Shown here: positions 26,521 through 53,860 of the stretch, piece by piece
How positions within the stretch are numbered: position 1 is the stretch's first letter
Layout of the letters: each line of letters begins with the position of its first letter
Assembly: GCA_903836515.1 (NCBI GenBank)
Contig: CAILQW010000061.1
Location: 1-61,339, forward strand
DNA length: 61,339 nt
Reading direction: 5' to 3'
Source: Candidatus Omnitrophota bacterium
GTDB taxonomy: Bacteria > Omnitrophota > Gorgyraeia > Zapsychrales > Fredricksoniimonadaceae
Program-made: the position numbers and the translations under genes
Notes under the pieces: generated by a model
Databases searched by the model: none
What the model was told of the DNA's origin: nothing
Seen by the model: only the letters and a program-made list of their open reading frames with translations

Positions 26521-26566
26521 CAAGCTAAAAGACCTTGTCCCGTACGGAACAAGGTCTTTTAGCTTG
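26521..26566 (-). terminator. 18-bp perfect hairpin just 3' of the tRNA (terminator-like, possibly bidirectional)
   Basis: CAAGCTAAAAGACCTTGT / ACAAGGTCTTTTAGCTTG, with T-tracts inside both arms. Confidence 0.65.
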
Positions 26567-26573
26567 TATCAAA

Positions 26574-26649
26574 TGGTGGATCGGATGGGAGTTGAACCCA
26601 CGGCCTCCTCATTGCGAACGAGGCGCTCTCCCAACTGAGCTACCGACCC
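26574..26649 (-). tRNA. tRNA-Ala(CGC)
   Basis: 76 nt cloverleaf. Acceptor GGGTCGG/CCGATCC with G3:U70, anticodon loop TTCGCAA, GTTCAA T-loop, encoded CCA. Confidence 0.96.
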
Positions 26650-35872: not shown

Positions 35873-35880
35873 AGGTTTTC

Positions 35881-35909
35881 AGGATAACAAAGCCCCCCTT
35901 AAAAGTCAA
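35881..35909 (-). promoter_or_regulatory. Putative sigma70 promoter, near-leaderless
   Basis: Minus strand TTGACT-17-TATCCT, with the ATG 8 nt after the -10. Confidence 0.55.
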
Positions 35910-35941
35910 ACCCCGTGGGGGAATGTTTTAAATGAAACTTC

Positions 35942-36054
35942 CCCAAGGTCGGCGGTATATCTTGCTGCTCAGACAGCAGAAACAGCTTTTTCAAAAAGAT
36001 ATTGGGGTAAGCTTGGTTTCTGAACTCGCATCAAGACATGCCGCCAACCTTGGG
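35942..36054. repeat. Structured palindromic intergenic element, copy A
   Basis: Shares identical 32-nt and 22-nt arms with 38068-38137, separated by a different 16-nt loop. Outer stem CCCAAGGT..GGCGG / CCGCC..ACCTTGGG. Confidence 0.85.
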
Positions 36055-36106
36055 TTGTTATGTTCTATGGCATGGCAGCTTTCATCAACATGTTAAGTTT
36101 TTTTAT

Positions 36107-36150
36107 TTGACTTGAGAATGCCGGGTGCTATTATGAACCATGGTTCATAA
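36107..36150 (+). promoter_or_regulatory. Promoter plus perfect 20-bp palindromic operator for the DUF134-acr3-arsC operon
   Basis: TTGACT-16-TATTAT with extended TG. TTATGAACCATGGTTCATAA at 36131-36150 overlaps the -10 and start site. Confidence 0.7.
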
Positions 36151-36164
36151 AAGGAAGGGCCGTC

Positions 36165-36479
36165 ATGAGACCCCAAAAGACCAGATGGGTGAAGTGCCTG
36201 CCGGGGGAGAGATGTTTTCGTCCCAAAGGCAGGAAGTCCGTTGATCCGCAAGATGTGTGTCTGACCATCGATGAATTCGAGGCGCTGCGCCTGTCTGACC
36301 TTGAGGGGCTGACACATGCCCAGGCGGCCGGGTTGATGAAGGTGTCGCGCCCGACGTTTACCCGCATTCTTATGGCGGCGCATCACAAGGTTGCTGACAG
36401 TCTTGTCAATATCAAGTCGATACGTATCGAGGGCGGCTGTTGCAGCATCGGCACAGCCTCCGTCAAGGGGAGGTTATGA
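36165..36479 (+). CDS. DUF134-family HTH protein
   Basis: MRP.K.R.V...P...[19 protein letters not shown]...AA..M.VSRPTF.RIL..A..KVA..LV....IRIEGG. Confidence 0.88.
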
Positions 36480-37537
36480 TGAAAGGGAAGAAAGAATTGT
36501 CGTTCCTGGACCGGTATTTGACGCTATGGATTTTTTTGGCCATGGGGGTCGGGGTGGGGGTTGGTTTCTGGTTCCCAGGCACGGCGGGCTTTTGGAATCA
36601 GTTTGATTCCGGGTCTACGAATATTCCTATTGCCATCGGGCTGGTCCTCATGATGTATCCGCCGTTGGCCAAGGTGAAATATGAGGAATTGGGGGATGTG
36701 TTTCGGGATTACAAGGTTCTTTTCCTTTCCCTTGTCCAGAACTGGGTGATAGGCCCGGTATTCATGTTTATTCTGGCCATCGTATTTCTGCGCGGTTACC
36801 CGGAATATATGGTGGGCCTGATCCTGATCGGGCTTGCCCGCTGTATTGCCATGGTCATTGTATGGAATGATCTTGCCGACGGGGACGGTGAATATTGCGC
36901 GGGGCTTGTGGCGTTCAATGCCGTTTTTCAGGTGCTGTTCTTCTCGGTTTATGCCTGGGTATTCATCACCATCCTGCCGGCCTGGTTTGGCTTGAAGGGG
37001 GTTGTGGTGCCTGTAACGATCCTTGAGATCGCCCAGAGTGTTTTTATTTATTTGGGGATCCCTTTTCTGGCAGGGATGTTCTCCAGGTTTGTCCTGCTCA
37101 AGATCAAGGGACGGGGGTGGTATGAGGATGTTTTTATCCCGCGCATCAGTCCGATCACCTTGACCGCACTTCTTTTTACGATCTTCGTCATGTTCTCTAT
37201 TAAAGGCGAATATATTGTGAAGATCCCCATGGATGTCTTTCGTATCGCGGTGCCATTATTGATCTATTTTCTGGTGATGTTTTTTGTTTCTTTCTGGATG
37301 AGCCTTAAAGCCGGGGCGCATTACGGCAGATGCGTGACATTGTCTTTCACGGCGGCCAGCAATAATTTTGAACTGGCCATAGCCGTGGCCATCGCCGTGT
37401 TCGGGATTAATTCGGGGGTGGCGTTTGCGGCCGTCATCGGGCCATTGATCGAGGTGCCGGTGATGCTGCTTTTGGTCAATGTGGCCATGAAACTCAAGAA
37501 AAGTGTCAAAGAGATTCAATCTTCTACCGGTTCTTAA
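36476..37537 (+). CDS. acr3: ACR3-family arsenite efflux permease
   Basis: [60 protein letters not shown]. Confidence 0.95.
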
Positions 37538-37556
37538 GGCTTGCGGCATGCCTTGC
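37519..37556. repeat. Truncated left end of the palindromic element, supplying the acr3 stop
   Basis: 34/38 nt identical to 38035-38072. Confidence 0.75.
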
Positions 37557-37615
37557 GGCATAGACAGCGGGAAAGATATTTTTAAACCAGGGATCTGTTA
37601 CAGAAAGGGTATGTT

Positions 37616-38053
37616 ATGTCCAGGCAGAAAGTTTTATTTGTGTGCATCCATAATTCGGCGCGCAGTCAGATGGCCGAGGAAATGCTGCGGCAGCTCGGCG
37701 GCGACAGATTTGATGTGGAGAGCGCCGGGATCGAGCCGGGGAAGCTTAATCCTGTTGTTGTCGAAGTCTTAAAGGAAGTCGACATAGATATCGCCGGCAA
37801 GAAGACGCAGGCTGTTATGGATCTTTTGAAACAAGGACGGCTTTACAGTTATGTCATCACGGTGTGTGATGAAACCAGCGCCGAACGCTGTCCTGTATTC
37901 CCGGGCCATGCCAAGCGCCTGCATTGGGGGTTTACGGATCCATCCAAATTTGAAGGGACATGGGACGAGAAGTTAAAGCAAACACGCGCGGTCCGCGATC
38001 AGATCAGGGACAAGATCCAGGCATGGCTGGGGGTATCTTCTACTGGTTCTTAA
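37616..38053 (+). CDS. arsC: Arsenate reductase, LMW-PTP/thioredoxin type
   Basis: FVCIHNSARSQMAE, ITVCD...CPVFPG, HWGFTDP. Confidence 0.93.
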   Translation: MSRQKVLFVCIHNSARSQMAEEMLRQLGGDRFDVESAGIEPGKLNPVVVEVLKEVDIDIAGKKTQAVMDLLKQGRLYSYVITVCDETSAERCPVFPGHAKRLHWGFTDPSKFEGTWDEKLKQTRAVRDQIRDKIQAWLGVSSTGS

Positions 38054-38168
38054 GTCTTCCGGCATACCTTGCTGCTCAGACAGCAGAAACAGCTTTTTCT
38101 AGAAAGAAGCAAAGAAAGCTTGGTTTCTGAACTCGCAGTCAAGGTATGCCTTCAGCCTTAAACCAGTA
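38035..38168. repeat. Structured palindromic intergenic element, copy C, supplying the arsC stop
   Basis: Nested stems TACTGGTT/AACCAGTA, GGCATACCTTG/CAAGGTATGCC, CAGAAAC/GTTTCTG, AGCTT/AAGCT. Confidence 0.85.
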
Positions 38169-38255
38169 AAAACTTTTCAAGTCATGGATATGCTAAATGC
38201 TTTTGACGGGAGCCCCTTGTTTCTGGTAATATGACGGCTAGTTACAGGTAAATAT

Positions 38256-40735: not shown

Positions 40736-41001
40736 TAGTAAATCTTTAGTGAGTCGAGAGGATTTCCTTAATTGATACCCGCTCTCTCTGTGGGGCGGGC
40801 ATGGGTGGGGGGTTTTAAATGGCCCTCGATGTGCTGATACACACCATCCAGGTTGCTAAGCACTTCATTATTCTAAAAGCGTATCACTTTAAATGCTTGC
40901 GCCTTTAACCATTTATCTCGCAGAGCATCTTTCCGGTTCTGATTGTGTTGTCCGCCGCTAAACATGTTCGGAAATCCTCTCGATTATCTGAACATTTACT
41001 A
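40736..41001. repeat. Pair of 32-bp inverted repeats (40736-40767 and 40970-41001) bracketing a nuclease remnant
   Basis: 27/32 identity between one copy and the reverse complement of the other. Inner 14 bp (TCGAGAGGATTTCC) perfect. Confidence 0.7.
40780..40959 (-). pseudogene. DUF559 (Vsr-like endonuclease) C-terminal remnant
   Basis: SGGQHNQNRKDALRDKWLKAQAFKVIRF*NNEVLSNLDGVYQHI. The usual RFWN Trp is TAG and the N-terminal half is missing. Confidence 0.72.
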
Positions 41002-41041
41002 GGAGCGCAATTCATTGCGCCCTTTAACGCGAACCTATTCA

Positions 41042-41075
41042 TTGACGAATACAGAAGAATATACTATATTCTTCT
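41042..41075 (+). promoter_or_regulatory. Promoter with perfect 23-bp palindromic operator
   Basis: TTGACG-17-TATATT. AGAAGAATATA-C-TATATTCTTCT at 41053-41075 covers the -10. Confidence 0.72.
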
Positions 41076-41091
41076 AAGAAGGAGAATATTT

Positions 41092-41334
41092 ATGTCCAAG
41101 ACAGTTACTATTAGACTTTCCGATGAAGATTACCGGGTGATTTCAAGTGTCGCCGAGCACGAAAGGCGGCCGATCTCGAATTTCATCACGCACAGGGTCA
41201 TGGCAGCGATCGCCGATATGAACACTGTTGATGATGCAGAGATGAAGGAGATATTATCTGACGAGAAGGTCATGCATAGCATCGACCGTGGCCAAAAGCA
41301 GTTTGTTCAGGGGAAGGGCCGCTTCGTTGTTTAA
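41092..41334 (+). CDS. RHH-type antitoxin
   Basis: RBS AAGGAG. MSKTVTIRLSDEDY...ISNFI, acidic C-terminus, overlaps the toxin start. Confidence 0.8.
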   Translation: MSKTVTIRLSDEDYRVISSVAEHERRPISNFITHRVMAAIADMNTVDDAEMKEILSDEKVMHSIDRGQKQFVQGKGRFVV

Positions 41335-41614
41335 TTTTAAGATCTTCGAAACACAGGATTATCTCGACCATCTTGAAGCGCTCTTGGAGAAGAAGCAAGA
41401 AGCGTTTAATAAGAAGCTTCAGGATTATGTTTACCCTCAGCTCAGAAATCAGCCGTATTTCCGAAAGAACATTAAGAAGTTGAAGGCCTGTTCGCATCCG
41501 ATGTGGCGGTATCGAGTCGGAGATATCCGCCTTTTTTACCAGGTTGACTCCTGCGGAAACGTTGTCCTCATGACAGTGGCCATGTTGCGTAAAGATTCCT
41601 ACCGTAGTTCTTAA
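41327..41614 (+). CDS. RelE/ParE-family toxin
   Basis: TTG start overlapping the antitoxin end. NIKKLK...WRYRVGDIRLFYQVD. Confidence 0.82.
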   Translation: MFNFKIFETQDYLDHLEALLEKKQEAFNKKLQDYVYPQLRNQPYFRKNIKKLKACSHPMWRYRVGDIRLFYQVDSCGNVVLMTVAMLRKDSYRSS

Positions 41615-41621
41615 TTTAAAT

Positions 41622-44279
41622 ATGCCAGCAATCTATCTTTCGCCGCACCAGCGGCTTTATGTTGAGGGGGACGGCCTGGATCCGGACCTGGAGGCGGCTT
41701 TTGCCAGGGGGGCCGGGCACGGGTTGTTGTGCCTTGACGCGGCCAGCGGCGGGTTCAGCGAGGAGCCGGCATTTGCTTTCTGGAAGGATTTTGTCCGACT
41801 GTACCTGTCGTTATTTACGGCCGTTCCTGATCTGGACAGCCGCGATCTTTCAAGAAATCCTGTGGGCATTGCTATGCCTGCCGATGACCTGAGCCGGATG
41901 CTTTTGACGCTCCCTCCGATGAAAGGGGCGGAGTATGCCGATGAGGCTTGTTTGCGAGGCTTGTGGGGCGGGATCGAAGAGGCCCTTGGCCGCGAGATCC
42001 TGGAGTCCGGGAAGACGGCAGGGCTTTATTTTGCCGCCCGCCATTCGCATTGGAGCTTGCTGGGGCGGGTGTGTTTTCATCTGGCGGAAAACAAGAAATC
42101 CCAAAGCCAGCCGTTTGCTTTCTTGGCGACCTACGCGCACGCGGTGGGCCATCATGGCCGGGTGCAGCACATTCTTTTGGGAAAAGCCCTGGAGGAATAC
42201 GGTGGCGCGGGCAATAGAAATTTGCTGTTGCGACTACTGGCGCCTGTTTACAAGGCGTCGGAAAAGAGTGCCTATCTTAAAACCATTGTTGATTCGGGCG
42301 ATATTTACCGCCCCTTGGCATGGACCCCGCAGGAAACTTACCGTTTCTTAAAAGACATCCCTTTTTTTACCGAGTCGGGTATTTTTGTCAAGGTTCCCGA
42401 CTGGTGGAAGCCCAAACAGCCGCGGCGCCCGCAGGTGGCTGTGCGTATCGGCGAGAAGGATCCCGGAGTGATGGGCCTGGACACCTTGCTTGATTTCAGG
42501 TTGTCGGTGATGCTCGATGAGCAGGAGCTGGATGAAGGTGAAGTGCGAGATCTTGTGGCGCACAGTGAACAGCTGGTATTCTTCAGAGGGCAATGGGTCG
42601 AGATCAACAGGGATAAGCTTGGCGAAGTCCTGGCGCAATGGAAATCGGTGGCTAAATCAGCCAAGGTGGGTGATGTGACGTTTGCCGAGGGGATGCGCTG
42701 GCTGGCGGGCCTGGGGCGCGCTGGAACCGGTATGGACAGGACGGATATCCAGGCGTATACCCGGGTGATCTCGGGCCAGTGGCTCACCAAGGTGCTTGAC
42801 ATGATGCGCGCACCTGGCGAGGATGCGCGCGTGGATGCCGCGCTTAAAACAAAATTAAAGGCTTCCTTGCGGCCGTATCAGCGGCAGGGTGTCGCGTGGC
42901 TGAATACGGTCAATCGGATGGGGCTTGGGGCGGTGCTTGCTGATGACATGGGGCTTGGGAAAACAATCCAGGTGCTGGCTTTGCTCCTGTTGAGGCAGGG
43001 CGAAGGCAAGAAAAACCATTCCTTGTTGATCGTGCCGGTGTCGCTCATGGGCAACTGGCTGGCGGAGATCCGCCGGTTCGCGCCTTCGTTGACGGTATGG
43101 ACAGCGCACACCGCTGGTGATGGCCTGGATGCGCCCCCGAATGATGTTGATCTTGTGATCACAACGTATGGTTCAACTGGAAGGCTGGCATGGATAACTT
43201 CCCGGGGGTGGGATATTGTGATCGCCGATGAGGCCCAGGCGATCAAGAATCCCGCCGCCAAACAGACCAAGGCGCTGAAGGCCATCAGGAGTTCCCATCG
43301 TCTGGCCTTGACCGGGACGCCGGTGGAGAATCACCTGTCGGATCTGTGGTCTTTGTTTGATTTTGTCGCGCCGGGCCTCTTGGGGTCCATGAAGGAGTTT
43401 GATACGTTTCTCAGGCGGACGCCTGTCTCCGGTGGCAGCCCTTATGCCGCACTGCGGTCGCTGGTGCGGCCATATATTCTGCGGCGGTTGAAGACCGACA
43501 GGAGTGTTATTGCTGATCTTCCGGACAAGACAGAGGCCAAGGCTTATTGCGCGCTTTCCAAAGGGCAGATGGCGCTTTACCAGAAGTCTGTGGAAGCGCT
43601 GACCAAAGATATTGCCGCGGCGGAAGGGATTAAGCGGCGCGGGATTATTTTATCGTATTTGATGCGATTCAAACAGATATGTAATCATCCCTCGCATTTT
43701 GTCAAGGACGGGATTTTTGCCGCCGGCGACAGCGGGAAATTCCTGAGGCTCAAAGAGATCTGTGACGTGATCGCGGAAAAACAGGAGAAGGTGCTTGTGT
43801 TTTCCCAGTTCAAGGAAATGATGCTGCCGCTGGCTGATTTCCTTGGAACCGTATTTGGGAAACCGGGGCTTGTTCTTGACGGGGATACACCGGTCAAGCG
43901 GCGTGCGGCGATGGTGGCGGCGTTTCAGGAAGATGATGGCCCGCCGTTCTTTGTGTTGTCCCTGAAAGCCGGTGGTACAGGGCTTAACCTGACCGCGGCA
44001 GCACATGTTATTCATTTTGACCGCTGGTGGAACCCGGCGGTGGAAAACCAGGCCACGGACCGGGCGTACCGTATCGGCCAGAAACGCAATGTCCTTGTGC
44101 ACAAGTTTATTTGCAAAGGGACACTGGAAGAGAAGATCGATGCCATGATAGAGTCAAAGAAGTCGATGTCGCGCGAGATCCTTGAAGGCGCTGACACGGC
44201 GATCCTGACGGAATTGTCCAATGAGGACCTGATCAAGATCGTTTCGCTCGATATTAAATCCGCGGAGAATGCCGCGTAA
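41622..44279 (+). CDS. SNF2-family helicase/ATPase
   Basis: LRPYQRQG, LADDMGLGKT, DEAQAIKN, LTGTPVEN, LRRLK, SLKAGGTGLNL, WWNPAVENQATDRAYRIGQ. Confidence 0.95.
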   Translation: MPAIYLSPHQRLYVEGDGLDPDLEAAFARGAGHGLLCLDAASGGFSEEPAFAFWKDFVRLYLSLFTAVPDLDSRDLSRNPVGIAMPADDLSRMLLTLPPMKGAEYADEACLRGLWGGIEEALGREILESGKTAGLYFAARHSHWSLLGRVCFHLAENKKSQSQPFAFLATYAHAVGHHGRVQHILLGKALEEYGGAGNRNLLLRLLAPVYKASEKSAYLKTIVDSGDIYRPLAWTPQETYRFLKDIPFFTESGIFVKVPDWWKPKQPRRPQVAVRIGEKDPGVMGLDTLLDFRLSVMLDEQELDEGEVRDLVAHSEQLVFFRGQWVEINRDKLGEVLAQWKSVAKSAKVGDVTFAEGMRWLAGLGRAGTGMDRTDIQAYTRVISGQWLTKVLDMMRAPGEDARVDAALKTKLKASLRPYQRQGVAWLNTVNRMGLGAVLADDMGLGKTIQVLALLLLRQGEGKKNHSLLIVPVSLMGNWLAEIRRFAPSLTVWTAHTAGDGLDAPPNDVDLVITTYGSTGRLAWITSRGWDIVIADEAQAIKNPAAKQTKALKAIRSSHRLALTGTPVENHLSDLWSLFDFVAPGLLGSMKEFDTFLRRTPVSGGSPYAALRSLVRPYILRRLKTDRSVIADLPDKTEAKAYCALSKGQMALYQKSVEALTKDIAAAEGIKRRGIILSYLMRFKQICNHPSHFVKDGIFAAGDSGKFLRLKEICDVIAEKQEKVLVFSQFKEMMLPLADFLGTVFGKPGLVLDGDTPVKRRAAMVAAFQEDDGPPFFVLSLKAGGTGLNLTAAAHVIHFDRWWNPAVENQATDRAYRIGQKRNVLVHKFICKGTLEEKIDAMIESKKSMSREILEGADTAILTELSNEDLIKIVSLDIKSAENAA

Positions 44280-44292
44280 ACGGGGAGTGGTT

Positions 44293-45075
44293 ATGTACAG
44301 ATACTGGAAGCCTTATGTTTCGGTTGCCAGACGGCGGTCGCAAGCGGTCAAAGCGACAGCGAAGATGGTGAAGAAGGGCGCTAAAATGACGCCGATCCAG
44401 ATCAACGGACGGGCGATCGCTCAAACGTTCTGGGGGAAAGCCTGGTGTGTGCATCTGGAGTCTTTCAGTGATTATGACAACCGCCTCCCGCGCGGGCGCA
44501 CCTATATTCGCAACGGCTCTGTGATCCATCTGGCCGTCAGCAATGCGAAAGTCGAGGCACTGGTCCAGGGTTCGAGCCTTTACAAGGTCAAGGTTGATGT
44601 TGAGGCCATCGCAGAGGGGCACTGGAAGCGGATCGTCAGTTCCTGTTCGGGCGAGATAGGTTCTGTGATCGAACTGCTGCAGGGGAAGTTGTCGGCGGGT
44701 GTGATGAAGATCATTGTCGATCGGCACAAGGGGCTTTTCCCGGAGCCTAAAGAAATATCTTTTTCATGCTCTTGTCCCGATTGGGCCGGGATGTGCAAAC
44801 ATGTGGCCGCTGTTTTGTATGGTCTAGGGCATCGCCTTGACCAGGAACCGGAGCTTCTTTTCAAGCTTCGGGGTGTTAATCATCTGGATTTGATCAGCAG
44901 TGCCGCCATTAAATTACCCACAGCGAAATCCCGACGTTCCAAAGGGGTGTCTTCCGGGGATCTGGCTGAAGTGTTTGGTATCGATATCGCCGACACTGGT
45001 GTCAGGCCTCCCTCTGTTAAGAAGTCAAAGCCTCCTGAGCGGCGGTCAAAGGTTGTCCGCAAGAAGCGGGCATAG
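44293..45075 (+). CDS. SWIM zinc-finger protein
   Basis: RLPRGRTY, FSCSCPDWAGMCKHVAAVLY (CxC...CxH). RBS GGGGAG before 44293. Confidence 0.9.
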   Translation: MYRYWKPYVSVARRRSQAVKATAKMVKKGAKMTPIQINGRAIAQTFWGKAWCVHLESFSDYDNRLPRGRTYIRNGSVIHLAVSNAKVEALVQGSSLYKVKVDVEAIAEGHWKRIVSSCSGEIGSVIELLQGKLSAGVMKIIVDRHKGLFPEPKEISFSCSCPDWAGMCKHVAAVLYGLGHRLDQEPELLFKLRGVNHLDLISSAAIKLPTAKSRRSKGVSSGDLAEVFGIDIADTGVRPPSVKKSKPPERRSKVVRKKRA

Positions 45076-45083
45076 CAATAGGA

Positions 45084-45105
45084 AGGGGCGTGATGAATCA
45101 CGCCC
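45084..45105. repeat. REP-like hairpin
   Basis: AGGGGCGTGA-TGAA-TCACGCCC. Same AGGGGCG...CGCCC frame as 59811-59837. Confidence 0.5.
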
Positions 45106-45250
45106 GTGCAGCCCCAGTACAACAATGCTGATCCAGCGCAAGAGACCCCGGACCTCGCTATCGATTAAGATTGGGTGAGGAGCAGGTGTTCTAAAGTACT
45201 AATATTAAGGATAATCCATATGATACTATTATTATCCTCTTTTATTATTC

Positions 45251-45403
45251 AATGATGCCAGCGAAAAGACGGGTGGTATTGATCTGAGTGCCAAGAACAT
45301 GGGTTTGGATGTCGCCATGGATCCCCGTCCGGCCGAAATGCCTGGCGGGGGCTTTCTATTTCTGAACTTTTCCAGAATCAAGCGTCATTTTGACATTATC
45401 TGA
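45251..45403 (+). pseudogene. Orphan GGIDL-type C-terminal fragment of a giant protein
   Basis: NDASEKTGGIDLSAKNMGLDVAMDP...II*. In-frame stop upstream at 45221 and no start codon before the motif. Resembles DNGGLDLS at the end of 45509-53860. Confidence 0.55.
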
Positions 45404-45508
45404 CATTATGGGTCGATAGTTAACAACGATTTCACATGGACGTCACTTCCCGGTCATACGCCAAGGATATACTCTGGCAGGCATCATTCATTGGCCTGAA
45501 AGGTATCC

Positions 45509-48500
45509 ATGCATCAATTTCTGCGTCAGGGGAGTTTGCGTCATCTCAAGCAACGGGCATGGTTTCGCCTGTTGTGTCTTACTGTGTTGGTTACTTATTG
45601 CATTGATTTGGTCGGTATGGACCTGCTTCGGACCCGTGAGGCGTATGCGCAAAGCGTGGTTGTGGCTCCCGTGCCAGGTGTGTTGCTGCCTTCTTCCGCT
45701 CCCGGATCCAGTCCGCTTCTTAAGGCCATATCCCTTGACCCGGCGGATCCGTTCAAGATCAATTTTCTCGTTGATGCCGGTGATCACGCGCGTGTCGATG
45801 AGAAGGAATCCAGCCGGCTTATAAAGTATTTTCTTACCTGTCTGACTATTCCTGAGAAAGATCTTTGGGTTAATTTGTCTCCCTCCGAACCCGGCCGTAT
45901 TGTGGATAAGAGGTTAGGTGCCACTACGGTGGGCGCGGATATGCTCAGAGAAGATTATCTGCTTAAACAATTGGCCGCGTCCATGACATTCCCCGACCGA
46001 GAGCCAGGCAAGGCATTCTGGAAACAGGTGTATGTCAGGATCAAGAAAAAATATGGTGATCTTGACCTTCCGGTGGACACCTTCAGCAAGGTATGGGTGG
46101 TGCCGGCAAAAGCTGTTGTGTACGAACAGGCAGGCAAGGCGTTTATTGCTGAAAGCCGGTTGAAGGTCATGCTGGATGAAGATTATCTGACCAACAAGAG
46201 CCATGTGACGCCTGATCAGGCACACCGTGATGATGCCGGCAAGGCCGATGATGTGTACCGGACGATCGCGCGCGAGATCATTATTCCGGAACTTGAGCGG
46301 GAAGTGAACGACGGCCAGTATTTTGCCCCGCTGCGCCAGATCTTCAGTGCGCTGATCCTGGCGATATGGTTTAAACGGAAATTGCGCCACAATATCATGA
46401 ACCGGGTATATGCCGATCAAAAGAAAACATCCGGTATCCAGACGGATGACAGGCAGGTGAGCCAGAAGGTCTATGCCCAGTATATGCTCGCGCTCAAGAA
46501 GGGGGTTTATGATGTGATCCGTGAGGATTATGACACGGATCAACAGGAGACCGTTGCACGCCATTATTTCTCCGGAGGATTTTCTTTTGAGAAAGCCGCC
46601 GGGAAGATTGATTTTGCCCAACTGTCTTCTTCGCGGGTTGACCGTTTGAAGTTACTCAAGGAAATCGGCAGTAATCTTGTCACGCTGGGTGTTTCGTTTA
46701 TCCCCAGAGGGATGCCCAAAAAGATGCTTCTGGCGTTGGCCATGGTTTCTCTTTCTTCTTCCGTTGTCCCTGCACCAGGGTTAGCTCCCAGGCAAGCCGT
46801 TGTCGCGCCTAAAGCCGTAGTTGTCAGCACAATACCCAGAGCAACACCACCACCGGTTATTGCAACAACAACGCCGGAGGCTGTTTCCGAGGCTATCATC
46901 AAAAGGGGCGACAAGATACCGGAAGCGGATCAGAAGTATCTTACTTATATGAAGGAAATGCTCACATTGAAGGATGTCCAGGATCTTCATGGAACGGTCA
47001 ACGCGTCGCTGCACATGACGTATGCGTTTGATATGACGCCGATAGAAAATAATTGGGACGCTATTTTCACGGCATCCACCATGGGCTGGCGGCAGGAAGT
47101 TGTGGTGATGACAGTCCAACAGAAGCTGGGGATTACAGCAGACGGCATCATGGGCCCAGAGACGCGTCGTGCGTTGAACGCTAAAATAGGGACGAAGGCA
47201 GCAGCTCCTGCTGGATCAGTATCTTCCCAGGTGTCGTTGCCGCAGGCCTCTAGAGGATTTTCTGTTGTGTCTGATAAAGCACCTTTTTCGATAGAGCCGG
47301 TCTCTCTGACCGCACCGAGCGGAGGTGTGGTGAATGGGTTTGATGTGCATAAGACAAAATATCGTAAGGGAGAGCCTATTCTTAAGGTATTGGATCCTGG
47401 CCTTGCGCAACAAATAGCTGCGTTAAAAGGGCAATTAAGTCCACTGCAGCAGCGGCTCAAGCGATTAAAGGCGTTGCAAGCGGCGCATCCGGGGGCCATT
47501 ACAGACATTGAGATCACAACAGCGGGTCTTGAGGTTCAAAATATCTCGCAGCAGTTGGCGCCGTTGATCCAGATCGAACAGGCAGGAGTTCTCAGGGCGC
47601 CTTATGATTTTCTTATCAAAGAGATCCGTGTGGGTAATGGACAAACGGTGTCCTCCAAGACAGTTTTGCTCGATTATCTTTCCGGGCAAATGCCAAGCTT
47701 TACGCTCAGGATGACTCGGGAAGAATCCCAAAACCTGGATCATAAGCGCATCACCATTGACGGCCAGCCTGTCACCTCGAACCCCAAGCTGGATATCCGC
47801 ATTGATCCCTTGAAGCCTAGCGAGGCGCTTGTTACATTCGTTGTGACGACAGCGTTGGATATTCAGGCCGGGAGTGTGCATCAGGTGAAGGTGGAGGTGC
47901 CGGCTTCTGTGGCGGATGACGGACTTGCGCTGGTGAAGGGAGTGGCTCATACAACCGCCAAAGTCGGATCATCCCCGGAGATACCGGTTGTTACTCTTGG
48001 AGCAGGTCCTGTCAACATCCTTGTCAGGCCCGGGCAAGAGGTTTTTCAGGGGCAGGTGGCGGCTATTCAACCTGGGGCCGCACAAGCCTGGCATGCGACC
48101 AAACTTTTGTATGACCAGGTGGATGTTCAGCTCAAGGAGAGGACTTCCGGCAATGGGGTCTATTTTACAACCACTCAAACGATGCCGCTGGAAACAAGAA
48201 GGGCTTCCTTGAAGGCGCAATTGCAGGCACAAGGTGAGGCTGTTGGCCGTTCTTTCATTAAAGCGCCTTGCAACGGTACGGTGACGACGGTGTCGTTATC
48301 AGGCGCTTTTACGCCGGGGAGCGAAATCTTCCGTTTAAATGGCCCTGTCCGTATCGGTGATCTGAATGATCCCAAAGGGGCGATCTTTGTGTCGGGCCTA
48401 TTGGATATCAAGAACGGTGATCCTGTCCTTGTGCGGACAGGATCGGGAAGGAATATCCCTGCCAGGATCACGAATATCAATAAGATGCCTGTAAGCCCGG

Positions 48501-51500
48501 GCATGGATCTTCAGGGCCTTCAGTCCCTTGAGGTGACGGCTATGGATCCGGATCATTATTTAGGCCTTAATATGCGGGTCACGGTCATTGTGCTCACAGA
48601 TGCCGAGAAATTACTTGTTGCGAAGAAGTTGGTGCCAGCCATGAAAGGGCAGCCCAGCCAGCGCACGGTCGCCGCGATGACGCCGGTGCCAGGATCAGAG
48701 CCACCCAGGAAAAAGACCGTTCCGATGCCGGAACCTGTAGACCTTGTTGGGCCGATTCAGACGGCCGCTTTATCGCCTGCCGCGATGGCCTCCGTCCCGC
48801 CAGCAGCGCCCCAGGTTCCATCGGTTTCAAACATGGCATTCTTTCAGAATATGCCTGTAGAATTTACTCCATCAACGGAGCAGGAAGTCGAGATCGGCAA
48901 AGTGGGACGTAATATTGAGGCATTGAAGAAGCTGGTGGGTGACCTCCAGGACGCCAGTCGCGTGCTTGCGGCCAGAGAGGCGGTAGCGCTTGCGCTTACG
49001 TCCGAAAAGGATGGGTTGAATCTGAAGATCCAGCATGTCGGTCAACGGCTTGCTGATGCAGAGGATCATAAGCGCCTTCTCATGGATAATATGGGTCAGA
49101 CTGATGTTGAAAAGAAAGATTCACGTTTCCACTGGGATGGCCAGTTCCCCCGTTTTTACACCGACAAGAAAGGCGCCTTTGATCCTCCATCCTCGTATTT
49201 AAATTGGAATATGTCCTTTGCTGAAAGGAGGGCGGTCAATGACATGAAGGCTTTGAGCGTGCTCATCAGACAGCAGAACAGTACATGTGATTCCAATCGT
49301 CGGGCTTTGGAGGAACAAAGCCGGATTTTACGGAAGGATCAACTGGTTGATCTGCGCGAGAAAGTGACGGATAGCGTCCTTAGATTGAACGAGCTCAAGG
49401 CGCAATATTTTAAGGCATGCTTGTTGGTTAGAGGGCACCTTTGGGACAGTAATAACTGGGGGGCCCCCCGCGTGCCGGCAGAGGCGGGACAACAGGTAAC
49501 GGAGCCCCGGCAACAGGCACCGGTCGTCCAGGCTGTGCTGGCCGCGGTTACAGAAGCGGTGGGTGCACCGCGACCTGCACCAGTGTATCATCCGAAAACA
49601 TCAGTCAGGCATCCTGATGAAGGTATTTCGTTGGCACAGCCGCGCATGTCATCGACGGTCAAGCCGCCTGGCGACGGTTTTATGGGTACGGGAGTTGTGT
49701 CGTATGATGAAAGCCCGTTGGCGGGGGCAACAGGCGCGGACGGCGAAGTTAATCTGGCACTTTTTGTCCATGACCCCAATCCTCTGGTGCGGATGGAGGG
49801 ACTGGATCTTTTCTTACAGCAAGGGCAGGGTTTGAATTTTATCGCCAATGCCCGGCAGGCTGTCCTGACGAGTCCGTTTCCTGATGTCCAGGCCAGGATA
49901 TTAGGTTATATGGTCGAGAGGAAGGATGCGGGCCTGCGTTTTGTGGTGAGCGTCCTTGATGAGGCGATCAGGAAGAAGCAATGGCCTCTCGTTGAAATTG
50001 GCTTCCAGTCCCTGTCGGACATTCTGGCCCAGGACCCGGCGTTGAAGCAACATGTGTCCGATCTGAATTATGCCTCAGGAACGCCGCTGAGCTCTTTGGT
50101 TCCTGTTGCACCGGAAGGGGCGCGCAAGGTTTTGCTGACGTTCTTGTCCCGTGACGGTGGACGTTCAAAGGCCGGGATAAATTTGTTGCGTCATATGCCC
50201 TCAGATCAGCTGGATCAGATATGTCATACGCTGGAATCATCCGGGGATCCGCGTTGGGGCCAACTTAAGGGGCTTCTCTTGAGCGAGATCATGCGCCAGG
50301 AAGCTGGCCACGGGATCGAGGATATCCAACCAGGTCCTTTCCAGGAGTATTCAACCGCTTACACCTGGGCGGATCAGATGACTTTTTTCCTGTATCATTC
50401 ACCGGAAGGGTTAAAACATATTAACGAGGATTTCCTCAAGGCATCACCGCACGGGGCTGATCCGCAAGGATATCTCCCTCAATGGTTGCGGGATAGGGCG
50501 TTAAAAGGTGTGCAAAAGCGTCTGGCATCAGCGCCTCCGTTGGCGGCGTCTTCCTTGATATATGATCTTCCTCCCGGGTTCGGGAATGCTGTCAATGCAC
50601 TGGCTGATTTTAACAGCCTTCTTGTCGATGCCCGGCAAAAAGATATTTTGCAAACCCAGAATATTGAAAAGCTTGGGCGTATCTTCGCGTCGTCGACTGT
50701 GCACAGCCGCTTGGCGCTTGACAAGTTGATGAAGACACCGGCAGGCATTATTCGGGCCCTGCAGGCTTATGCCGGATCAAAAGACCCGGAAGTGCGTAAA
50801 CTGATGAAAAACCACGCGGCCGATGTTCTGGCCATGAATAATGTCATTAATCCCTTGGATTGCCTTTCCATGCCGATCCGTAATATCCCGGATCCCGTTT
50901 CCATGGGGATCCTGCGCCATGCGTTGGAGCAATTGTATCAGGAGACCAACGACCCTGAGTTTTTGAATCTTCGCCTAAAGACGTTTGGCTTCATTGAACT
51001 GAGCACCGCAAAGGATCCCCGCGGGCAACACAAAGTCGGTGAGCAGATCGAGGCGGAGGCGATACGGCTGTCCTTGGCGTTGCTGGACATGATCAAGCCG
51101 TATTATGTGCCTTTGAGTTCTATTATCAGTGGCCAACATACCTACGACTCTGGCGTGCAGTCGGTTATCGATGACCTGGGCAACAGGATCAATGCGGGAG
51201 ATCCCCGGGAAGTGTCGCGTTATCTGGAAGAGGTCCAAAGAAATGGCGGCGGGGACAAGAAACAATTCGCTAACGATATCAATTCCTGGGAAAAGGCGTT
51301 TGTTTCGAGGATTTCAAGGAATGATCAGGGTGTCCAGGGTATGCCTCTCTGGAATGTTGTTGCTGCGCTTGGCGCTATCGGCTTTGTCCTTAGCACCATG
51401 AAGAAGAATTTGTACAATATGTTTTTCCTGAAGTGGACAAGCATCGCAGGCCTTCGCAGAATGGTGGAGAAAGATTTAATGAAGCCTGAATATTGGATCA

Positions 51501-53860
51501 AGGCAGGCAAGAAGACTGACGCTAGCATGCGAAATCAGCTGTCTTTGTTTGAGGTCCGTAAGATTCCCGATGAGAAGGGCTTCTTTTATAAGGATACGGG
51601 TGATTCTTTGAAACAGTGGGCCGGGATCCTGGGTGGATGGAGCAAGCCCGGTCAGACAACACCGCAAAGTCTTATCCAGGGGTTCAATGATATCCTTAAC
51701 AATGTGGCAAAGATCCTTTATCAGTTGCCGTATACTCCGCAACTCATGGGTGTCCCTGATGCACATGGGGCTTACCTTGATAGAACGTATATCAATGCCT
51801 TGAGTTTTTTTATCACGCTGACAGAGGACACGTTAACAAATCTTGACACTCTCATGCAGCCTGAAATTCTACACGCATTGAGCCCTTCTCAACGGCAGGT
51901 ACTTTCCCGGGACAGGGGTATTCTGGTGGAAAAGGTGGGGTATGCTATCGAGTTTCTGGCTATCCTTGAATTGCGCGGGGTTATGGACAAATGGATCGGC
52001 GAGAAACGTGCGAATGATCACAAGCTGGAAAAGGGAGGTTTTTTCCCGTTCCTGCGAACGTTGCTTTTTCGCGGTACGGGATTGTTAGAGAAAAAATTGT
52101 TCAAGAGATTGCCAGGCCTTTTGGAAAAGGGTGAGGCGTTGATGCCAGGATTGTATCCAGCTGATACGCAGGAAGCCATGGTTTTGCGTAGTCAGGAAAT
52201 ATTTGACGCGATGGAAGCGAATGGAACTACTATGGGGGGGCATGTGCTGCCAGGAACATCCGACACGTTGACACAGAACAGTACGTGGCGGCAGGCACGT
52301 ACAGCCATAGTGTCTCTTGCGGTCGTGGCGGGGGTTGTCTTGTCCTTCGGCAGGTCGTCTACGTTGCCCGCTATTGTGGTTGCGTTTTTGGGCCTGTTCC
52401 TTTATATGATACCGAATATCAAGCTTGCGTCATTGGGCTGGGAGACGGTCTCGCATGTTCTTATCAGGAAACTTGACGCCGCTTTGACCATGTCACTGGG
52501 GCCGGCGCCCAGGGAGAGCAATGGTGACGCTAAAGCCGTGATCATCAAGGCCGCGTTGCAGGAAGCTGATGAACGGCTTAAGGAGGCGTTGGCGGCACAA
52601 AAGCCGTACGTGGATATGGTCGTGATCGTTCCGCAAGACGGTAGCCTTGTGAACAATCTGGATACTTATGTGGCTGCCCGCCGCGGGAAGATCTTCAGGC
52701 ACGATGTGCCGGTTGAAGTGATGGCGCCACAAAGGACAGGCAGTGCGAATCTCAATTTTGAGGTCATGCAGCTGGTGGAGGAGAAATTAAGGGACACTAA
52801 ATTTCTGGAAGAATATCCTTACCTTAAGGACCGCGCGTTGGAGGATATACGGGTGATGGTGGTGTTGCATGGCAACAATGAGGTTCAGCATGACAAGATC
52901 CTGGATCTGGCTATTGTGAACGGGTATCGCATTTTTGCGGTGATGCCTCAAGGGCAAGGCGGGTATGTGCTCATGTACAGCCGGGACGCCTATCTTGGCC
53001 CCGTGCCTGAAGCCATCGATCAGCCGTTAAGTGTGTTTGGTCATTGGGTGGGCGAGGATGGGTTGATGACATTGGGCCTGTTGGACCTGATCAAGAAAAG
53101 AGTCCTCGAAAAACTGAATATCAAGAAGTTGAAAAAGACCGCAGGCGATGCTGATTCTTATGGCGGTTCAGTACTGAAATATCTGGGTGCTCATTTTGAT
53201 TTGTCTAAAGAGCAGTTAGAGCAGTATCCCGGAGGGATCGGCATAACGGTTTTTAATCCTTCAACAGTTTCGATCCTTGCAAAGATTTTGCATCAATTGC
53301 AAAAAGATCCTGATCTTTGGGATAAGTTAAATCTGCAGATGACCCTGGATATTATCGATGTTCTCAAAATATCTTCGCAAGCCGAACGGCAAAAATATAT
53401 TAACAAACGGATCACGCTTCCAGATATTGAGCAAGAATATGCCGTTAAAGATCCAGAAAGGGTGCGGCTTCTTTTGTCTGCGTTTTATGGGATGTTCAAT
53501 GGGCCTTCGATTCCCTTTACTGATTTCCTTCCGCATCCCGGCGCCGCGGTGGTGAAGCATCTTAAAACAGCTGAAGATCGGGACGCCATCCTGCGCTTGT
53601 TGCAAGGCTGGCGCGATGACGCCGCCGCGCTTGTCCCTGTCCAGGCAAGTGTCCCTGTGCAAATCGATAATGGCGGGCTTGACCTTTCACGGGCGCAGGA
53701 CCAGATTGAATGGCGTGGCGGTCACGCGCCTGAGGCCCCCTCATTGGATCCGGTTTATTCCGGGCATGCGGTCCAATTCCTTCAGCTTTTCCGTGGTTTT
53801 GATTTTCGCATCACAGCCTCCCAGCCGCTTGAAGATCCCAAGGTATTTTTAGGCTTTTAA
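45509..53860 (+). CDS. Giant 2783-aa mosaic protein (conserved leader domain, PG-binding-like motif, two MFP-like modules, helical repeats, TM segments, GGLDL tail)
   Basis: Uninterrupted 8.35-kb ORF. LWVNLSP...DYLLKQLAAS...FWKQVY...TFSKVWVVP leader, QQKLGITADGIMGPETRRAL, two lipoyl-hairpin-lipoyl patterns. Confidence 0.9.
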   Translation: MHQFLRQGSLRHLKQRAWFRLLCLTVLVTYCIDLVGMDLLRTREAYAQSVVVAPVPGVLLPSSAPGSSPLLKAISLDPADPFKINFLVDAGDHARVDEKESSRLIKYFLTCLTIPEKDLWVNLSPSEPGRIVDKRLGATTVGADMLREDYLLKQLAASMTFPDREPGKAFWKQVYVRIKKKYGDLDLPVDTFSKVWVVPAKAVVYEQAGKAFIAESRLKVMLDEDYLTNKSHVTPDQAHRDDAGKADDVYRTIAREIIIPELEREVNDGQYFAPLRQIFSALILAIWFKRKLRHNIMNRVYADQKKTSGIQTDDRQVSQKVYAQYMLALKKGVYDVIREDYDTDQQETVARHYFSGGFSFEKAAGKIDFAQLSSSRVDRLKLLKEIGSNLVTLGVSFIPRGMPKKMLLALAMVSLSSSVVPAPGLAPRQAVVAPKAVVVSTIPRATPPPVIATTTPEAVSEAIIKRGDKIPEADQKYLTYMKEMLTLKDVQDLHGTVNASLHMTYAFDMTPIENNWDAIFTASTMGWRQEVVVMTVQQKLGITADGIMGPETRRALNAKIGTKAAAPAGSVSSQVSLPQASRGFSVVSDKAPFSIEPVSLTAPSGGVVNGFDVHKTKYRKGEPILKVLDPGLAQQIAALKGQLSPLQQRLKRLKALQAAHPGAITDIEITTAGLEVQNISQQLAPLIQIEQAGVLRAPYDFLIKEIRVGNGQTVSSKTVLLDYLSGQMPSFTLRMTREESQNLDHKRITIDGQPVTSNPKLDIRIDPLKPSEALVTFVVTTALDIQAGSVHQVKVEVPASVADDGLALVKGVAHTTAKVGSSPEIPVVTLGAGPVNILVRPGQEVFQGQVAAIQPGAAQAWHATKLLYDQVDVQLKERTSGNGVYFTTTQTMPLETRRASLKAQLQAQGEAVGRSFIKAPCNGTVTTVSLSGAFTPGSEIFRLNGPVRIGDLNDPKGAIFVSGLLDIKNGDPVLVRTGSGRNIPARITNINKMPVSPGMDLQGLQSLEVTAMDPDHYLGLNMRVTVIVLTDAEKLLVAKKLVPAMKGQPSQRTVAAMTPVPGSEPPRKKTVPMPEPVDLVGPIQTAALSPAAMASVPPAAPQVPSVSNMAFFQNMPVEFTPSTEQEVEIGKVGRNIEALKKLVGDLQDASRVLAAREAVALALTSEKDGLNLKIQHVGQRLADAEDHKRLLMDNMGQTDVEKKDSRFHWDGQFPRFYTDKKGAFDPPSSYLNWNMSFAERRAVNDMKALSVLIRQQNSTCDSNRRALEEQSRILRKDQLVDLREKVTDSVLRLNELKAQYFKACLLVRGHLWDSNNWGAPRVPAEAGQQVTEPRQQAPVVQAVLAAVTEAVGAPRPAPVYHPKTSVRHPDEGISLAQPRMSSTVKPPGDGFMGTGVVSYDESPLAGATGADGEVNLALFVHDPNPLVRMEGLDLFLQQGQGLNFIANARQAVLTSPFPDVQARILGYMVERKDAGLRFVVSVLDEAIRKKQWPLVEIGFQSLSDILAQDPALKQHVSDLNYASGTPLSSLVPVAPEGARKVLLTFLSRDGGRSKAGINLLRHMPSDQLDQICHTLESSGDPRWGQLKGLLLSEIMRQEAGHGIEDIQPGPFQEYSTAYTWADQMTFFLYHSPEGLKHINEDFLKASPHGADPQGYLPQWLRDRALKGVQKRLASAPPLAASSLIYDLPPGFGNAVNALADFNSLLVDARQKDILQTQNIEKLGRIFASSTVHSRLALDKLMKTPAGIIRALQAYAGSKDPEVRKLMKNHAADVLAMNNVINPLDCLSMPIRNIPDPVSMGILRHALEQLYQETNDPEFLNLRLKTFGFIELSTAKDPRGQHKVGEQIEAEAIRLSLALLDMIKPYYVPLSSIISGQHTYDSGVQSVIDDLGNRINAGDPREVSRYLEEVQRNGGGDKKQFANDINSWEKAFVSRISRNDQGVQGMPLWNVVAALGAIGFVLSTMKKNLYNMFFLKWTSIAGLRRMVEKDLMKPEYWIKAGKKTDASMRNQLSLFEVRKIPDEKGFFYKDTGDSLKQWAGILGGWSKPGQTTPQSLIQGFNDILNNVAKILYQLPYTPQLMGVPDAHGAYLDRTYINALSFFITLTEDTLTNLDTLMQPEILHALSPSQRQVLSRDRGILVEKVGYAIEFLAILELRGVMDKWIGEKRANDHKLEKGGFFPFLRTLLFRGTGLLEKKLFKRLPGLLEKGEALMPGLYPADTQEAMVLRSQEIFDAMEANGTTMGGHVLPGTSDTLTQNSTWRQARTAIVSLAVVAGVVLSFGRSSTLPAIVVAFLGLFLYMIPNIKLASLGWETVSHVLIRKLDAALTMSLGPAPRESNGDAKAVIIKAALQEADERLKEALAAQKPYVDMVVIVPQDGSLVNNLDTYVAARRGKIFRHDVPVEVMAPQRTGSANLNFEVMQLVEEKLRDTKFLEEYPYLKDRALEDIRVMVVLHGNNEVQHDKILDLAIVNGYRIFAVMPQGQGGYVLMYSRDAYLGPVPEAIDQPLSVFGHWVGEDGLMTLGLLDLIKKRVLEKLNIKKLKKTAGDADSYGGSVLKYLGAHFDLSKEQLEQYPGGIGITVFNPSTVSILAKILHQLQKDPDLWDKLNLQMTLDIIDVLKISSQAERQKYINKRITLPDIEQEYAVKDPERVRLLLSAFYGMFNGPSIPFTDFLPHPGAAVVKHLKTAEDRDAILRLLQGWRDDAAALVPVQASVPVQIDNGGLDLSRAQDQIEWRGGHAPEAPSLDPVYSGHAVQFLQLFRGFDFRITASQPLEDPKVFLGF

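Follow-up and report, generated by a model that had tools for sequence, protein, structure and literature searches.

The IS200/IS605 elements carry subterminal palindromes which the Y1 transposase recognises as folded single strands, cleaving at a distance from them (PMC3201880, PMC3597680); IS608, for instance, has subterminal imperfect palindromes and distant cleavage sites (PMC3201880). PATEs are non-autonomous derivatives of IS200/IS605 (PMC3119063), and REPINs, which are also non-autonomous relatives (PMC3116915), occur in tens to hundreds of extragenic copies and are inherited vertically (PMC3116915, PMC3337134). Here we describe two long hairpins, A and C, and a degenerate third copy, B, that are found at the edges of and inside an arsenic resistance (ars) operon on contig CAILQW010000061.1 of a Candidatus Omnitrophota bacterium (assembly GCA_903836515.1), of which the forward strand from position 1 to 61,339 was analysed and is referred to as the window. 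The operon and the hairpins are missing from the otherwise collinear site of a sister species, and we tentatively propose that A and C may be the ends of a non-autonomous mobile ars unit whose single strands would fold for recognition in the manner of IS200/IS605, PATE or REPIN elements.

A and C share a 32-nt left core and a 22-nt right core, each identical in both copies (Table 1), and in both the two blocks enclose a 16-nt loop, the loop of A being unrelated in sequence to that of C. No further match to the two blocks is found in the 61-kb window with up to 3 mismatches, where the chance expectation is 0, and A and C are the longest local inverted repeats of the window. Identical arms around unrelated loops were first recorded in an initial annotation of this DNA, and their positions and uniqueness in the window are verified here. 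In RNA folding A and C each form a single long hairpin, with energies of -54.3 kcal/mol (z -6.9) and -42.7 kcal/mol (z -5.1), respectively, and in folding as single-stranded DNA they reach z -5.2 and -6.5. Both strands of A and of C fold about equally well, and the folds thus indicate no strand preference. The outer foot of C is formed by TACTGGTT (38041-38048), which pairs with AACCAGTA (38161-38168), so that the arsC stop codon (38051-38053) falls within the left arm of the palindrome; an element at 38035-38168 is real, as had been noted, but its palindrome, at 38042-38167, is wider than was noted then. The motif A(A/T)CTTC stands directly 5' of the hairpin foot in A, B and C (35936-41, 37519-24 and 38035-40, respectively), while nothing is conserved among the three copies 3' of it. 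The hairpin termini read ACYGGTT...AACCAG in B and C, and those of A are different.

The core shared by A and C is invariant and irregular, its stems being interrupted by conserved bulges. Differences between A and C fall in 0 of the 54 core columns versus 39 of the 73 other columns (P about 1e-12). The outer stems, in contrast, diverge in sequence and still pair, as the initial annotation had remarked: RNAalifold on the near-gapless alignment of A and C returns 36 pairs, six of which, all in the outer stem, are changed on both sides with pairing kept. These compensated pairs are suggestive of covariation, which in a comparison of two sequences amounts to no statistical proof, and the distribution of the differences is far stronger evidence. 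The locus is 100% identical among contigs from several studies and assemblers, and it is therefore not an assembly artefact. Short-k contigs of the Logan collection (L004, L006, L064 and L069) end exactly inside the shared 32-nt and 22-nt cores, a break that a 32-nt repeat would cause; as a practical warning, repeats of this kind fragment the ars locus in public assemblies.

The sister species, whose flanking Gfo/Idh/MocA oxidoreductase is 90% identical and whose site lies on a 257-kb contig (loci compared, L071 and L072), has the same divergent gene pair with 132 nt between the two start codons and with neither ars genes nor a hairpin. Flank homology scores are 52 for sister positions 1-41 against window 35873-35913 and 34 for sister positions 79-115 against window 38196-38232 (95% null value of 24 in both cases), which leaves 37 nt in the sister versus 2282 nt (35914-38195) in the window at the same site. 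Within the segment, 28 nt separate A from the left border and 28 nt separate C from the right border, and the two copies are in direct orientation. The suggestion that the elements bracket the arsenic cassette is thereby borne out, and the comparison of empty and filled sites that had been called for shows the whole block from A through the ars genes to C to be absent from the sister. Two more distant relatives also lack ars genes at this site. The G+C content of the inserted segment is 0.48-0.52 versus 0.55-0.61 in the flanks, from which we infer a foreign composition and a horizontally acquired ars operon. However the hairpins are read, the comparison with the sister provides a clean case of recent ars acquisition between two divergent promoters, beside the Pho regulator genes.

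At unconstrained positions A and C differ by ~53%, versus 12-22% between the flanks of the window and those of the sister; both ends were therefore already differentiated on arrival. Neither the 32-nt nor the 22-nt core is traceable in the 132-nt spacer of the sister by sequence comparison or by covariance models, which excludes a deletion in the sister by recombination between A and C as well as a simple attB x attP integration. That A and C represent attL and attR of an integrated circle was likewise rejected, as the empty site has no shared core. A small hairpin in the sister is not significant (z = 0.03), and the left end of A, its loop plus right core and the 28-nt border pieces show similarities to sister or local sequences only within the null range. 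No strain variant without the insertion was found, every readable contig being 100% identical over the ars region that it covers, and at other loci with identical flanking proteins the ars genes are present wherever the contig reaches them. As a separate observation, GGG(G)TAAGCT occurs in three places, namely in the loop and right core of A (window 36004-36022), in the spacer of the regulator promoter in the sister (L072), and in a small hairpin after arsP of another Omnitrophota (L057 2322-2336); in the first two it is followed by TTTCTG, and each match is within chance expectation.

Table 1. Positions of the hairpins, their conserved blocks and the genes and predicted control elements around them in the window.
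Feature	Position	Strand	Description
Inserted segment	35914..38195	+	2282 nt; holds A, ars promoter/operator, DUF134, acr3, B, arsC, C
Copy A	35942..36054	+	Imperfect palindrome of 113 nt; AACTTC (35936-35941) directly before
Left core of A	35961..35992	+	32 nt, identical to C
Right core of A	36009..36030	+	22 nt, identical to C
Copy B	37519..37590	+	C-type element with internal deletion of ~57 nt; acr3 stop at 37535-37537
Copy C	38035..38167	+	ATCTTC (38035-38040) plus palindrome 38042-38167; unit common to B
Left core of C	38068..38099	+	32 nt, exact match to A
Right core of C	38116..38137	+	22 nt, exact match to A
Gfo/Idh/MocA-lpxB operon promoter (predicted)	35881..35909	-	Flank conserved with sister; A upstream
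ars promoter (predicted)	36107..36134	+	TTGACT-16-TATTAT
Probable operator	36131..36150	+	Perfect 20-nt palindrome TTATGAACCATGGTTCATAA, overlaps -10 of predicted ars promoter
DUF134 gene	36165..36479	+	PF02001, E = 7.6e-19; putative arsenic-responsive operon regulator
acr3	36479..37537	+	Arsenite efflux, SBF family
arsC	37616..38053	+	LMWP, thioredoxin-type arsenate reductase
OmpR/PhoB-type response regulator + histidine kinase promoter (predicted)	38203..38232	+	Flank conserved with sister

Copy B had been taken for a truncated third copy at 37519-37556; it is real but longer. Its first part (37519-37573) is 84% identical to C over 55 nt and it keeps the right terminus TTAAACCAG at 37582-37590, so B is a once-complete C-type element with an internal deletion. 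B no longer folds, either as RNA or as DNA. B and C have 8 nt in common outside the palindrome and start in the same reading frame, their left arms encoding the last five codons and the TAA stop of acr3 and arsC, respectively (SSTGS*); that both proteins end in SSTGS, as initially observed, thus holds. In the closest relatives of Acr3 and ArsC, acr3 ends in ...CCS-stop and arsC follows after 11 nt, versus a spacer of 78 nt in the window, which argues that B was inserted into a native compact operon. The window Acr3 ends in QSSTGS* in place of the conserved CCS* of the relatives and has lost both cysteines. An SSTGS end is absent in all listed ArsC and Acr3 homologs, and the ArsC tail GVSSTGS* is seen in no homolog. 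A mutated native acr3 tail would be an attractive origin of the SSTGS tail, which has the same length, but the similarity of the two in nucleotides is not significant (P 0.02-0.9 across five relatives).

Based on these features, A, B and C may constitute an uncatalogued family of long hairpin-forming DNA repeats that arrived with the horizontally acquired ars operon, in which A and C, alike in strand and orientation, would be the two differentiated ends of a 2.3-kb unit. Both ends combine an invariant bulged core, a free loop, outer stems for which only pairing matters, and A(A/T)CTTC 5' of the foot. We propose that A and C act at the DNA level, where they would be extruded as single-stranded hairpins. 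The enzyme to recognise them would be encoded at another place in the genome and would most plausibly be an HUH/Y1 transposase of the IS200/IS605-RAYT kind; cutting beyond the hairpins at some distance, it would move all that lies between them, the operon included, as a cargo-carrying, non-autonomous PATE/REPIN-like element. B would be an older C-type copy at the end of acr3 whose loop and right arm were lost, probably because an intact hairpin within the operon is harmful. As a side effect, the C-type left arm would supply the ends of acr3 and arsC. Two observations point weakly toward a single-stranded DNA element: the strand that is conserved is the G-rich one in the window and presumed lagging-strand template (prior 50%), and on another Omnitrophota contig (ERZ1426617, 26,156 bp, gene content only) a gene for a 250-aa Y1_Tnp protein (PF01797) lies directly upstream of a homologous DUF134-acr3-arsC-arsP operon, where it could be an IS200/IS605-type element.

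Several points weigh against this proposal. Mobility is deduced from a single insertion, because no other copy has been found: none is present in the window, in ~95 kb of related Omnitrophota loci, in GTDB representatives, JGI metagenome contigs, IMG/VR, plasmids or phages, collections to which the organism's own genome beyond the contig does not belong. The 61-kb window contains no Y1/RAYT or other transposase, integrase or recombinase, and a RAYT/TnpA(Y1) or recombinase gene flanking one of the copies, for which a search had been advised, is thus lacking there. The hairpins are 4-5 times longer than known IS200/IS605 or REP hairpins. Junction analysis did not pin down exact junctions, a target or a duplication; the two candidate 6-nt direct repeats, TAAATG (35929-35934 / 38194-38199) and AAACTT (35935-35940 / 38170-38175), are mutually exclusive and neither is significant, each having a probability of ~1-2% by chance (our own estimate). 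The model has to add an event to account for B, and it does not foresee that two genes would share an in-frame tail. No donor is known, since the closest ars operons in relatives have no such hairpins.

The search for further copies combined several approaches. Two covariance models, R1 for the whole hairpin and R2 for the core hairpin, were run with filters off in the window and the related loci and retrieve only A (143 bits on the plus strand and 45 bits on the minus strand) and C (151 bits) in the window, with nothing outside 35.9-38.2 kb and nothing in the ~95 kb of related Omnitrophota DNA; a 16-bit match in L073 was discarded as an ordinary terminator adjoining a tRNA-like sequence. A degenerate core pattern fitting A, B and C was used to scan GTDB, represented by one genome per species, and the metagenome and virus collections. 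The 13 matches in GTDB, where ~9 are estimated to arise by chance, and the 32 matches in JGI metagenomes do not extend past the 19-23 nt pattern in BLAST with A and C and were rejected; the JGI result is a weak negative, as that collection lacks the known JGI contig of this locus. Three patterns gave 0 matches in IMG/VR. BLAST of the elements found nothing in plasmids and only a marginal 37-nt match in Listeria phages, and a profile of the two in-frame translations retrieved only two repeat-rich proteins among 1.84 billion protein representatives. Of the MITE/REP-like mobile hairpin envisaged in the initial annotation, the link between a structured palindrome and DNA mobility stands, given its absence at the sister site; a genome-wide family was not recovered, only three copies being present across the window, the related loci and the public collections, to which the rest of its own genome is external.

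The closest rival to a mobile ars unit is that the hairpins belong to an ordinary selfish palindromic repeat of the MITE, ERIC or REPIN kind, abundant in the donor or in the rest of the genome, whose independent insertions, before the operon and at the ends of acr3 and arsC, were carried along as passenger scars without a part in moving the fragment. We consider this rather unlikely. Size and shape resemble ERIC/REPIN-type elements, families of this kind typically include internally deleted copies such as B, the operon that B interrupts is compact in relatives, the copies are confined to the low-GC foreign segment, and the C-type copies have defined termini. Passengers would not, however, be expected to sit symmetrically at 28 nt from both borders, as A and C do, and three copies within 2.3 kb contrast with none in the other 59 kb or in the collections searched. 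The termini of A are unlike those of B and C, and direct reading of the sequence reveals no clear target-site duplication around the individual copies A, B and C.

A second rival places the elements at the RNA level: B and C would be 3'-end stabilisers of mRNA against 3' exonucleases, a terminator or insulator before the phoB-like promoter, or modulators of translation termination, and A would be a leftover or an insulator. Beyond arsC the sole strong structure is C, and the operon is followed by no canonical terminator, while the closest relative has a classical terminator at this position; the stop codons of both genes are in the 5' arm, the RNA folds are very stable, compensated pairs are present, and loss of the hairpin in B, which is internal to the operon, fits avoidance of polarity. 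An RNA role cannot, however, explain A, because A lies upstream of both predicted divergent promoters, and is for this reason probably untranscribed, with the same perfectly conserved core; the structured non-coding RNA considered in the initial annotation is accordingly unlikely for this copy. C is not followed by a U-tract, the folds favour neither strand, the 54-nt invariant core with its conserved bulges exceeds what a stabiliser hairpin needs, and homologous operons do without a hairpin. Nor do the elements belong to a known Rfam family, an expectation that had been made refutable at the outset: in the window only the tRNA at 26577-26649 reaches its gathering score, and in E-value mode the hairpins give sub-threshold matches to generic hairpins (18-22 bits versus cut-offs of 72-110). 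As a full account of the hairpins an RNA function is thus quite unlikely, and the copies are most likely mobile DNA ends or scars rather than regulatory RNA, although B and C may well have a role at the RNA level in addition, whether the mobile unit or passenger insertions apply.

It is very unlikely that the copies arose purely by local duplication and drift, with palindromes kept by hairpin-templated correction or gene conversion and with neither function nor mobility of the element. Such an origin would agree with the fact that only these copies are known and that B and C share 8 nt outside the palindrome as well as the reading frame, as if copied locally, and correction of quasi-palindromes can yield compensated pairs without selection. 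Identical 32-nt and 22-nt blocks around an unrelated loop, however, reflect neither uniform drift nor a single conversion tract, and simple local duplication, which had been named as a possible refutation, does not account for the 0/54 versus 39/73 differences. Since the sister site has neither A nor C, the two were not generated from resident sequence, and the repeat unit shows no significant similarity to native acr3 tails. An integron-like cassette array, with the hairpins serving as attC-type sites and an integron integrase having taken up acr3 and arsC singly, is close to refuted and extremely improbable, for although the order site-genes-site-gene-site, a hairpin length within the attC range and conserved unpaired bases in the stems recall such arrays, no RYYYAAC or GTTRRRY box is found in A, B or C on either strand, the terminal triplets GTT...AAC have the reverse of the attC order, the 61 kb encode neither intI nor any other tyrosine recombinase, the unit brings a promoter, an operator and a regulator of its own, and relatives have acr3 and arsC as a compact native pair.

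ArsC, Acr3 and the flanking oxidoreductase all have their closest homologs in Candidatus Omnitrophota. The ars operons of the closest relatives have no hairpin upstream, between or downstream of the genes and no comparable long inverted repeat. Because DUF134-acr3-arsC is compact in relatives without hairpins, assembly of the operon gene by gene from cassettes, as proposed in the initial annotation, is contradicted. DUF134 heads the ars genes in four Omnitrophota contexts, and its position at the head of the operon instead of ArsR can be seen in the window (36107-36479), in L074 (9640-10038) and in L055 (5623-5931). The relative locus L074 has a homologous palindrome, TTATGCACCATAGTGCATAA, at the same place as the probable operator of the window. 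Cys11, Cys17 and the vicinal Cys92-Cys93 of the DUF134 protein are invariant, and the protein looks like a member of an undescribed family of arsenite-responsive repressors; a full-text literature search for DUF134 and arsenic returned nothing relevant. Half-sites of a Pho box or of the DUF134 operator were sought in the hairpin core and rejected, spacing and symmetry being unfit by eye, with no formal test.

The gene order around the insertion is lpxB, Gfo/Idh/MocA (both on the minus strand), A, the promoter and palindrome, DUF134, acr3, B, arsC, C, and an OmpR/PhoB-type regulator with its kinase. The flanks conserved with the sister include the predicted -35 and -10 elements of both divergent promoters, and the ars unit is inserted exactly between the two -35 elements, adjoining the PhoB/PhoR-like pair (35873-35913, 38196-38255). 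A porin-pstS-pstC-pstA...phoU cluster is also present in the window at 54.5-60.5 kb, and the link between arsenate and phosphate may make this an advantageous site of insertion. The rest of the window is ordinary chromosome, with ATP synthase, a type II secretion/pilus cluster, lipid A genes and the pst-phoU cluster. At 26521-26566, between a PIN-domain gene and the tRNA gene (26577-26649, minus strand), lies a 46-nt palindrome that is 96% perfect and has no spacer, probably a bidirectional terminator. Window 40945-53860, 3' of the kinase, contains a low-GC DUF6290/ParE-like toxin-antitoxin pair followed by a DUF3670-SNF2 helicase (885 aa), a SWIM-finger protein and a 2783-aa open reading frame without Pfam annotation, and may be another accessory or defence island; the sister has other genes after the kinase, encoding a 546-aa product without Pfam hits and then PMT_2.

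In its strongest form, the proposal of a mobile ars unit is that a complete regulated resistance operon between two ~120 nt hairpin ends with a common invariant bulged core is moved in trans by a single-strand-specific enzyme, HUH-type or other, while the unit itself carries no transposase, integrase or terminal inverted repeats. It would then be a gene-mobilising element of an undescribed kind, in effect a REPIN or PATE with cargo in the candidate phylum Omnitrophota, which we regard as unlikely. If the hairpins are indeed the cis-acting ends of the ars unit, they would reveal a route by which whole resistance operons move invisibly to standard annotation, as no transposase, integrase, inverted repeats or attC would mark them, in a lineage known only from metagenomes. 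Single-strand transposition that recognises hairpins would then also take in cargo and structured ends of much greater length. Should the hairpins instead be an ordinary palindromic repeat of an unseen genome, they would be a minor addition to the MITE/REP catalogue.

Among known systems, IS200/IS605 elements and PATEs resemble the ars unit in that each end has an imperfect palindrome close to it, with strand and orientation the same at both, the borders are some distance (28 nt) outside the hairpins, a short conserved motif stands just 5' of the hairpin foot, and terminal inverted repeats and a clear target duplication are lacking; like a PATE, the ars unit carries no transposase. It differs in the length of its hairpins (113-126 nt versus roughly 20-40 nt), in a cargo that is a complete regulated operon, and in having no tnpA within 61 kb and one known insertion; the defined cleavage tetranucleotides and the fixed target 5' of the left end that mark IS200/IS605 were not identified. 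REPINs and their RAYT partners (PMC3116915, PMC3337134) offer a hairpin of ~100 nt with two conserved arms and a less conserved spacer, and a non-autonomous element whose presumed partner is a single-copy Y1 enzyme encoded elsewhere, whereas the present element has its three copies grouped within an imported segment, its conserved blocks (32 nt versus 22 nt, with bulges) do not simply repeat one another in inverted form, and the window contains no RAYT.

The attC sites of integrons share the architecture of a folded single-strand recombination site with conserved unpaired bases, a variable centre and a position 3' of genes, but their pattern of conservation is inverted relative to that of A and C, in which the core proximal to the centre is invariant and the outer part variable, and the R-box consensus and an integrase are absent here, where the operon has its own promoter. 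ERIC/IRU of enterobacteria, Correia/NEMIS and RPE are multi-copy long palindromic repeats found mostly in transcribed intergenic regions, and they appear not to resemble A, B and C in sequence. They are likewise imperfect palindromes of ~120 nt, with internal-deletion variants like B and with copies at gene ends that contribute codons or stops; A, being probably untranscribed, sets the present elements apart from them. A MITE combines terminal inverted repeats with a target-site duplication at each copy; here the palindrome itself gives B and C inverted termini, no duplication flanks the individual copies, and neither dispersed copies nor a related autonomous insertion sequence were found in the window, the related loci or the collections. 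The layout of A and C matches that of the subterminal imperfect palindromes of IS608 (PMC3201880) and not that of transposons with terminal inverted repeats. With both hairpins on one strand in one orientation, a bulged invariant core, a free loop, a 5' motif and a place just within both borders of the insertion, but no terminal inverted repeats, the pair fits the description of IS200/IS605 subterminal palindromes and their PATE and REPIN relatives.

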